Part shown: positions 4,787 through 4,862 of the stretch, in pieces | Position numbering within the stretch: the first letter of the stretch is position 1 | Layout: the number at the start of each line of letters is the position of its first letter | Notes under the pieces: generated by a model | The model's database searches: none | Told to the model about the DNA's origin: nothing | What the model saw: only the letters and a program-made list of their open reading frames with translations | Source: Eledone cirrhosa | Taxonomy: Eukaryota | Assembly: GCA_964016885.1 (NCBI GenBank) | Contig: OZ024745.1 | Location: 96,348,001-96,412,000, forward strand | Length of the DNA stretch: 64,000 nucleotides | Direction: 5' to 3' | Position numbers and translations under genes: made by a program

Positions 4787-4862
4787 ACAGATTGACTTTG
4801 TTAGTTTCAGAAGATCCCGTTAAGGGTGAAAGCAGCGACTCTTTGCTTAAACTTTAATCTGT
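4787..4862 (+). ncRNA. Extended type I hammerhead with CAGAAGA core
   Basis: Distal stem I ACAGATTGA/TTAATCTGT; proximal stem I AGTTT/AAACT; core CAGAAGA; stem II CCC gttaa GGG; GAAA; stem III AGCA/TGCT; CUU site after 4848. Second copy at 56840-56915. Confidence 0.7.

Follow-up and report, generated by a model that had tools for sequence, protein, structure and literature searches.

A family-wide A4 core variant of the type I hammerhead in a Hydra-clade Penelope-like retrotransposon

The window analysed here, a continuous stretch of 64,000 nucleotides, holds two copies of a 76-nt motif that resembles a type I hammerhead and has a core reading CAGAAGA, with A rather than U at position 4. The locus raises two questions: whether A4 is a trait of a whole family or the decay of a few copies, and whether a motif built on such a core would still cut. 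The structure of copy 1 was built on the sequence and scored, and is composed of the following parts:

4787..4862, plus strand: type I hammerhead motif, copy 1
4787-4795/4854-4862: distal stem I, 9 bp
4796-4802: one-sided stem I bulge, 7 nt
4803-4807/4849-4853: proximal stem I, 5 bp
4808..4814, plus strand: core C3-A4-G5-A6-A7-G8-A9 (CAGAAGA), with the variant A4 at 4809
4815/4827: U10.1·U11.1
4816-4818/4824-4826: stem II, 3 bp, with loop GUUAA
4828-4830: GAA
4831-4835/4843-4847: stem III, four Watson-Crick pairs and a G·U, with a 7-nt loop
4846..4849, plus strand: CUU triplet, with the cut predicted between U17 (4848) and A1.1 (4849) from hammerhead numbering placed on the sequence

Three helices surround the core and the ends of the motif meet in stem I, which is the type I layout. 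C3-G8, G5, A6, A9, G12, A13, A14, the A15.1-U16.1 pair and an NUH triplet are all present. The original prediction described a two-part stem I with an internal loop; the two parts are there, but the interruption is a bulge on one strand only. The non-palindromic 4-bp stem III that it proposed also stands, closing as a monomer (-1.9 kcal/mol), and is refined by the additional G·U. The second copy and the element sequence surrounding both copies are located as follows:

56840..56915, plus strand: type I hammerhead motif, copy 2, with A4 at 56862 and U17 at 56901
3903..4997, plus strand: 5'-truncated element remnant carrying copy 1 (BLAST against the intact element L091: 3903-4877 at 88.7%, 4648-4997 at 94.6%)
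4863..4962, plus strand: tail with two preferred 3' ends of genomic copies, which end there and continue into (TA)n
56806..56927, plus strand: truncated element end of 122 bp carrying copy 2, adjoining a (TA/TG)n tract
43481..43519, plus strand: third, shorter fragment of the element, with the 3' third of the motif and the tail (BLAST)

The two 76-mers share the same unusual features and differ only in loops, as had been claimed: 73 of 76 positions are identical, and the mismatches at motif positions 10, 14 and 53 (4796, 4800 and 4839 in copy 1) are all unpaired. The flanks do differ more than the motif, with homology limited to 4753-4874 against 56806-56927 at 91.8%, mainly because copy 2 is a truncated insert of 122 bp. 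The remnant around copy 1 contains the 3' UTR, pseudo-LTR, hammerhead and a tail that ends just short of the would-be start of the next ORF. Subfamily-diagnostic sites assign the two copies to different subfamilies. The original prediction missed the third fragment, and its use of the likeness of two copies as proof of conservation fails, since two recent transposon copies cannot show conservation.

The motif is not a chance fold. An exact 25-mer from it has 17,262 matches genome-wide against 0 for the reversed control, and the 76-mer itself has many exact copies in the 3.0-Gb genome. A type I descriptor gave 174 matches in 540,182 bases, taken from loci picked largely for the target family, and 0 in the same bases reversed. 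In the alignment, 90.6% of the cells assigned to stems are paired, compared to 26-60% when the structure is slid. Rfam hammerhead models returned no match at the gathering score, nor at E<=10, although this test is insensitive here because the gathering-score search also overlooked two canonical hammerheads, one at window 1596 and one near 46490. Folding of the 76-mers was no better than that of shuffles (z -0.49 and -1.11), and the folding model gave the proximal stem I a probability below 0.1 in the monomer. The motifs at 1596 (plus strand) and about 46490 (minus strand) are further type I hammerheads, from other families, with canonical CUGA cores.

A hammerhead core calls for U at position 4 (CUGANGA), which the target family lacks. 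With stem II left free, A4 has 27,698 matches genome-wide versus 159 for U4, which makes this a variant rather than a canonical type I hammerhead, and rules out a CTGAAGA family consensus with the two window copies as outliers. The exact 25-mer likewise has A at position 4 in 17,262 matches and some other base in 165. Among the 100 non-A matches listed, G, T and C were found in 38, 32 and 30, so U is not favoured, and 30 U4 loci examined were spread over several backgrounds or sat at junctions and did not appear to form a U4 subfamily. Copies selected by their flanks alone carry A4 in 30 of 30 cases for young copies (30 of 6,612 matches) and in 29 of 30 for old copies (30 of 45 matches). A4 is a trait of the family, shared by young and old subfamilies, and not decay, as originally proposed. 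It is most simply read as a change within the target lineage. Nothing shows that A is itself preferred at this position, and a single unchanged position cannot prove selection for it.

A candidate U4 sister subfamily, defined by 910 matches to a U4 pattern, was rejected: none of 20 loci had the family stem I strand upstream, and 13 of the 20 were fold-back junctions centred on position 4, with arms of at least 70% identity. Fold-back junctions of this kind are frequent and are centred exactly on core position 4, where TTC-A-GAA is a small inverted repeat. On one strand such a junction shows U4 and so mimics a canonical subfamily (for example near 1501 in L112, L115, L117, L129 and L130), and a mirror case occurs in the U4 sister family described below (L181). 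Genome counts can therefore hold false U4 or A4 variants created by such junctions.

A search for other A4 families gave 2,687 matches against 534 for the control; no second dispersed A4 family was seen in the 30 loci examined, all from cores followed by GAAAC. These loci were fold-backs, strays from U4 families, a single local tandem array and sequences that are not hammerheads. The array (L201-L205, L259 and L260; G000:C1, ~53.356-53.369 Mb) belongs to another hammerhead family, whose dispersed members are U4, and has A4 in at least seven units; a single mutated unit probably spread within the array. Outside the target family, 61 of the 69 distinct incidental descriptor matches start with CU.

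Judged from their sequence, both window copies are pseudo-LTR ends of a very abundant Hydra-clade Penelope-like retrotransposon (PLE), an origin that the original prediction missed. The repeat extends upstream of the motif in the copy flanks, and (TA)n follows soon after it. An intact element is found on the minus strand at locus L091, with these features:

7763-7688 and 4513-4440, minus strand: hammerheads, 3,250 bp apart
7555-5426, minus strand: ORF of 710 codons, RT/GIY-YIG

The unit is thus 3.25 kb with a hammerhead at each end, ordered as hammerhead, 710-codon frame, 3' UTR and second hammerhead, and the motif is in sense to the ORF. An inverted truncated copy lies upstream, and the flanks are (TA)n. 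The pseudo-LTR tandem, inverted 5'-truncated copy, tail and (TA)n targets of a PLE are all found, and inverted junctions inside the motif region number 4,050. Judged by motif, the protein has signatures of a reverse transcriptase (YRDD) and a C-terminal nuclease (AYIGLT...RLYMH). The Hydra clade was defined by an RWK-like motif, DKT in place of DKG and a CxCX5C linker, with CxxC and CxH around conserved E and N as further marks (Craig et al., 2021; PMC8557442). The L091 frame matches the published definition in its motifs and layout, with RWRA, SDKTG (DKT for DKG), CNCRNQADCP (CxCX5C), CDLC and CKH. A Pfam search with the protein returned no family, so the Hydra assignment rests on motifs and layout. 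The Naiad clade was considered and rejected, as the protein carries the Hydra motifs and has its endonuclease at the C terminus. The L091 frame has 40-44% identity to metagenome relatives. Relatives were found at seven metagenome loci (36-43% identity), five of which have hammerheads, all U4.

Other pieces of related sequence lie in the window. Positions 23192-23912 (plus strand) hold part of another Hydra-like ORF, covering the linker and endonuclease, with ~35% identity to the L091 protein. Within the element 3' UTR, 4466-4568 and 4588-4692 are an old tandem duplication of ~120 bp (~80% identity) that is also present in L091.

How unusual is the target among hammerheads of its clade? Like published Hydra hammerheads, it is of type I, lies in the pseudo-LTR of a PLE with a C-terminal endonuclease and inserts at (TA)n (PMC8557442). 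By our own count over the 26 Hydra rows of File S2 of that paper, U10.1·U11.1 is found in 14, U17 in 10 and U4 in all 26, and stem III has 3-4 bp; one entry, Hydra-1_cRog, shares with the target both a stem I in two parts and its CTGAAGAT...TGAA frame. The U·U, U17 and two-part stem I, which had been presented as unusual, are thus already published for the clade. The searches behind these rows used canonical descriptors, which would likely miss A4 families (PMC8557442). The target differs from the published forms, whose loop III has 1-3 nt and whose stem III begins with A-C, in having A4, a 7-nt loop III and a G15.2-C16.2 pair.

A sister Hydra family in the same genome (L243; 14,504 matches, ORF identity 51%) is the closest group outside the target family when 15 fragments, all from loci fetched in this analysis, are placed in an unrooted tree. 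It shares the U·U, 3-bp stem II, 4-bp stem III and a long loop III (8 nt) with the target, and differs in having U4 in 99 of 100 matches listed and a GUA triplet. The long loop III is thus no distinguishing mark, and only A4 and the G15.2-C16.2 pair are specific to the target family. The sister serves as a matched control provided by nature, and its abundance shows that a high copy number does not require A4. A4 as the cause of the family's success was likewise rejected, the U4 sister being about as abundant.

We found no natural A4 (U4A) hammerhead family in the literature searched, and no paper combining 'hammerhead' with 'U4A'. None appeared in the accessible text of PMC6765202, PMC6155905, PMC11014351, PMC12192606 and bioRxiv 10.64898/2026.07.22.740005. 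Lunse et al. (2017), on PLE hammerhead variants, lay outside the search and, together with the supplements of PMC4209133 and PMC9901934, may bear on the novelty of A4.

The closest functional comparisons are the minimal hammerheads of metazoan PLEs (Cervera and de la Pena, 2014) and that of the anole PLE PAc. The target resembles them in its pseudo-LTR position, its tandem and inverted truncated copies and its tail past the cut (PMC4209133, PMC11167929). Their activity is reported as low or protein-assisted, and they are described as acting as dimers without a stable helix III, the reported core variant being U3-A8 (PMC4209133, PMC11167929). The target, in contrast, has a stable stem III and its core change at position 4. 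Its stem III is not the very short palindromic helix, in need of a second copy, of the dimer-dependent minimal PLE hammerhead; as a monomer hairpin of 5 bp it folds at -1.9 kcal/mol in the young form and -3.8 in the old. We also rejected stem III as an interrupted palindrome that promotes dimers, as its self-duplex (-12.2 to -12.9 kcal/mol) is equalled by 27-47% of random loops.

Genomic copy ends give no footprint of cleavage. At motif position 63, the predicted cut, 167 copies end, versus 90, 137, 223 and 361 at positions 46, 59, 66 and 70, so there is no excess at 4848/4849, in what is a weak test because the U4 sister has no clean peak either (76 versus 50 and 12; stem I fold-backs made up 13 of 30 loci). 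With no peak in the target and an ambiguous positive control, the idea of a DNA footprint of cleavage was set aside. The sequence upstream of 60 loci examined was element pieces, microsatellites or unique DNA, with no recurrent foreign RNA seen. The preferred 3' ends of copies lie ~27 and ~117 nt past the predicted cut and may be reverse-transcription start sites, by analogy with PAc, where reverse transcription is reported to begin internally at two such sites past the cut (PMC11167929). A GCTC-N2-3-CGGTT motif is found at window 4880-4890 and 4967-4978, a few bases past each preferred end.

From this analogy and from the sequence, we lean, without great confidence, towards an attenuated hammerhead that would cut slowly after U17, probably with protein help, while the element copies through the uncut motif. 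Reverse transcription would start ~27 or ~117 nt past the predicted cut and then have to read across the motif, so that new insertions would come from uncut (or re-ligated) RNA. Insertion from uncut RNA would relax selection on cleavage speed, and a damaging core change could then fix once in a master lineage. The fold and catalytic bases would be kept by purifying selection for residual processing of tandem transcripts. Three sets of published data point to a slowed, probably protein-assisted ribozyme. In PAc, mutants with a dead hammerhead insert normally in vitro, the template is mainly unprocessed RNA and the ribozyme cuts only with the protein (Frangieh et al., 2024; PMC11167929). A full mutational scan of a type III hammerhead gave low activity for every single CUGA mutant (PMC9901934; the U4A value was not found in its accessible text). 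A viroid variant with U4C cut far more slowly in vitro but was still infectious (Perreault et al., 2011; PMC3088659).

Some of these observations would equally suit a motif that no longer cuts, and whose three-way fold serves as a structural or protein-binding element near the start of reverse transcription. The low activity of CUGA mutants and the insertion of hammerhead-dead PLE RNA favour such a role, as do the lack of a peak of copy ends at the predicted cut and the ~27,700 copies reached by the A4 family. We consider it unlikely, as the unpaired catalytic bases have been kept while N7 varies, which a working core predicts, although this is suggestive only (p=0.13). N7 is a known free position of the hammerhead core. 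In old copies it is A in 15 of 30 and U in 13 of 30, and the letters of C3, G5, A6, G8, A9, G12, A13 and A14 are unchanged; taken alone, the core changed at 0 of 13 sites compared to 5 of 21 for the loops, which is not significant and gives the p value above.

The stems and core together give a clearer contrast, and bear on the possibility that A4 killed the founder ribozyme and that its apparent conservation is recent shared ancestry. The majority letter of 30 flank-anchored old copies departs from the young form at 5 of the 21 sites in loops and at none of the 55 in stems or core (p=0.001). Across 126 copies, variants shared by at least 8% are absent from all 57 sites in stems or core and present at 3 of 19 in loops and 119 of 911 in the UTR (p=0.0007 for stem and core against UTR), in a set gathered by motif similarity, which favours this outcome, and with position 4 excluded for the 30 loci chosen as non-A. 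In both young and old lineages, then, changes avoid the stems and core, and a dead relic is already disfavoured and, in our judgement, improbable. What speaks for it is that young copies are mutually close, that there are no compensatory pair changes and that private substitutions strike stems freely, at least as often as loops (29/1056 versus 5/432), as is expected from decay after insertion. The original prediction, that substitutions would spare stems, thus holds for lineage changes and fails for private ones. Old copies also differ in the stem I bulge, one base longer in most, and in an extra T in distal stem I in 16 of 30. This constraint at the level of lineages suggests that the fold, and probably the core, is maintained in master lineages.

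A further possibility is that the effect of A4 is compensated, for instance through loop II touching the U-rich bulge of stem I, and that the motif works as a monomeric ribozyme of normal activity. Consistent with this are the full type I layout, in which loop II faces the bulge in stem I, and the ability of stem III to close as a monomer in both young and old forms; tertiary contacts are also thought to rescue natural core variants (PMC3088659). A hammerhead with a U10.1-U11.1 start of stem II is also reported as active (PMC3088659). Like the variants described there, the target has a single natural core change, which reduced activity in those cases; unlike them, rare single sequences among which U4A was not found in the accessible text, it is fixed in tens of thousands of copies (PMC3088659). 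Against it, the bulge and loop II vary between subfamilies and no matching changes were seen in them, almost every insertion extends across the uncut site, and no double mutant rescued the CUGA turn except a C3-G8 swap (PMC9901934). Covariation analysis of 20 sequences, whose stems barely vary, found one pair with a two-sided change, no more than in shuffles, and gave no covariation for the loop-loop tertiary contacts first suggested; for a repurposed chemistry, also suggested, we found no evidence. Compensation is therefore doubtful to us. We rank the attenuated hammerhead first, ahead of the structural fold, then the compensated form, then the neutral relic.

A related and bolder proposal is a fixed natural U4A hammerhead that cuts at a useful rate, its core rescued by the bulged stem I, loop II or an element protein. 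We hold this as doubtful as compensation itself. If true, U4 would be dispensable in nature, searches for CUGANGA would miss whole retroelement families, and the A4 family and its U4 sister would lend themselves, as a pair, to testing the purpose of PLE ribozymes.

The target family combines a known ribozyme-retroelement system with a real single-base core change that runs through the whole family, and its sister is a good natural control. The target multiplied to ~27,700 copies with a change that should slow cutting, keeping its stems and the other core bases, and the sister with a normal core reached a similar number. The pair would allow a direct test of whether fast cleavage matters to such elements. 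Descriptor searches fixed on CUGANGA can skip entire families.

The window contains two further repeats. Positions 2133-2775 are a 640-bp fold-back (93% between arms) of a different repeat, and a further piece at 4999-5274 abuts the end of copy 1 at 4999. A minisatellite of ~470 copies of a 15-nt unit, with a strong G skew, occupies about 30930-38500.
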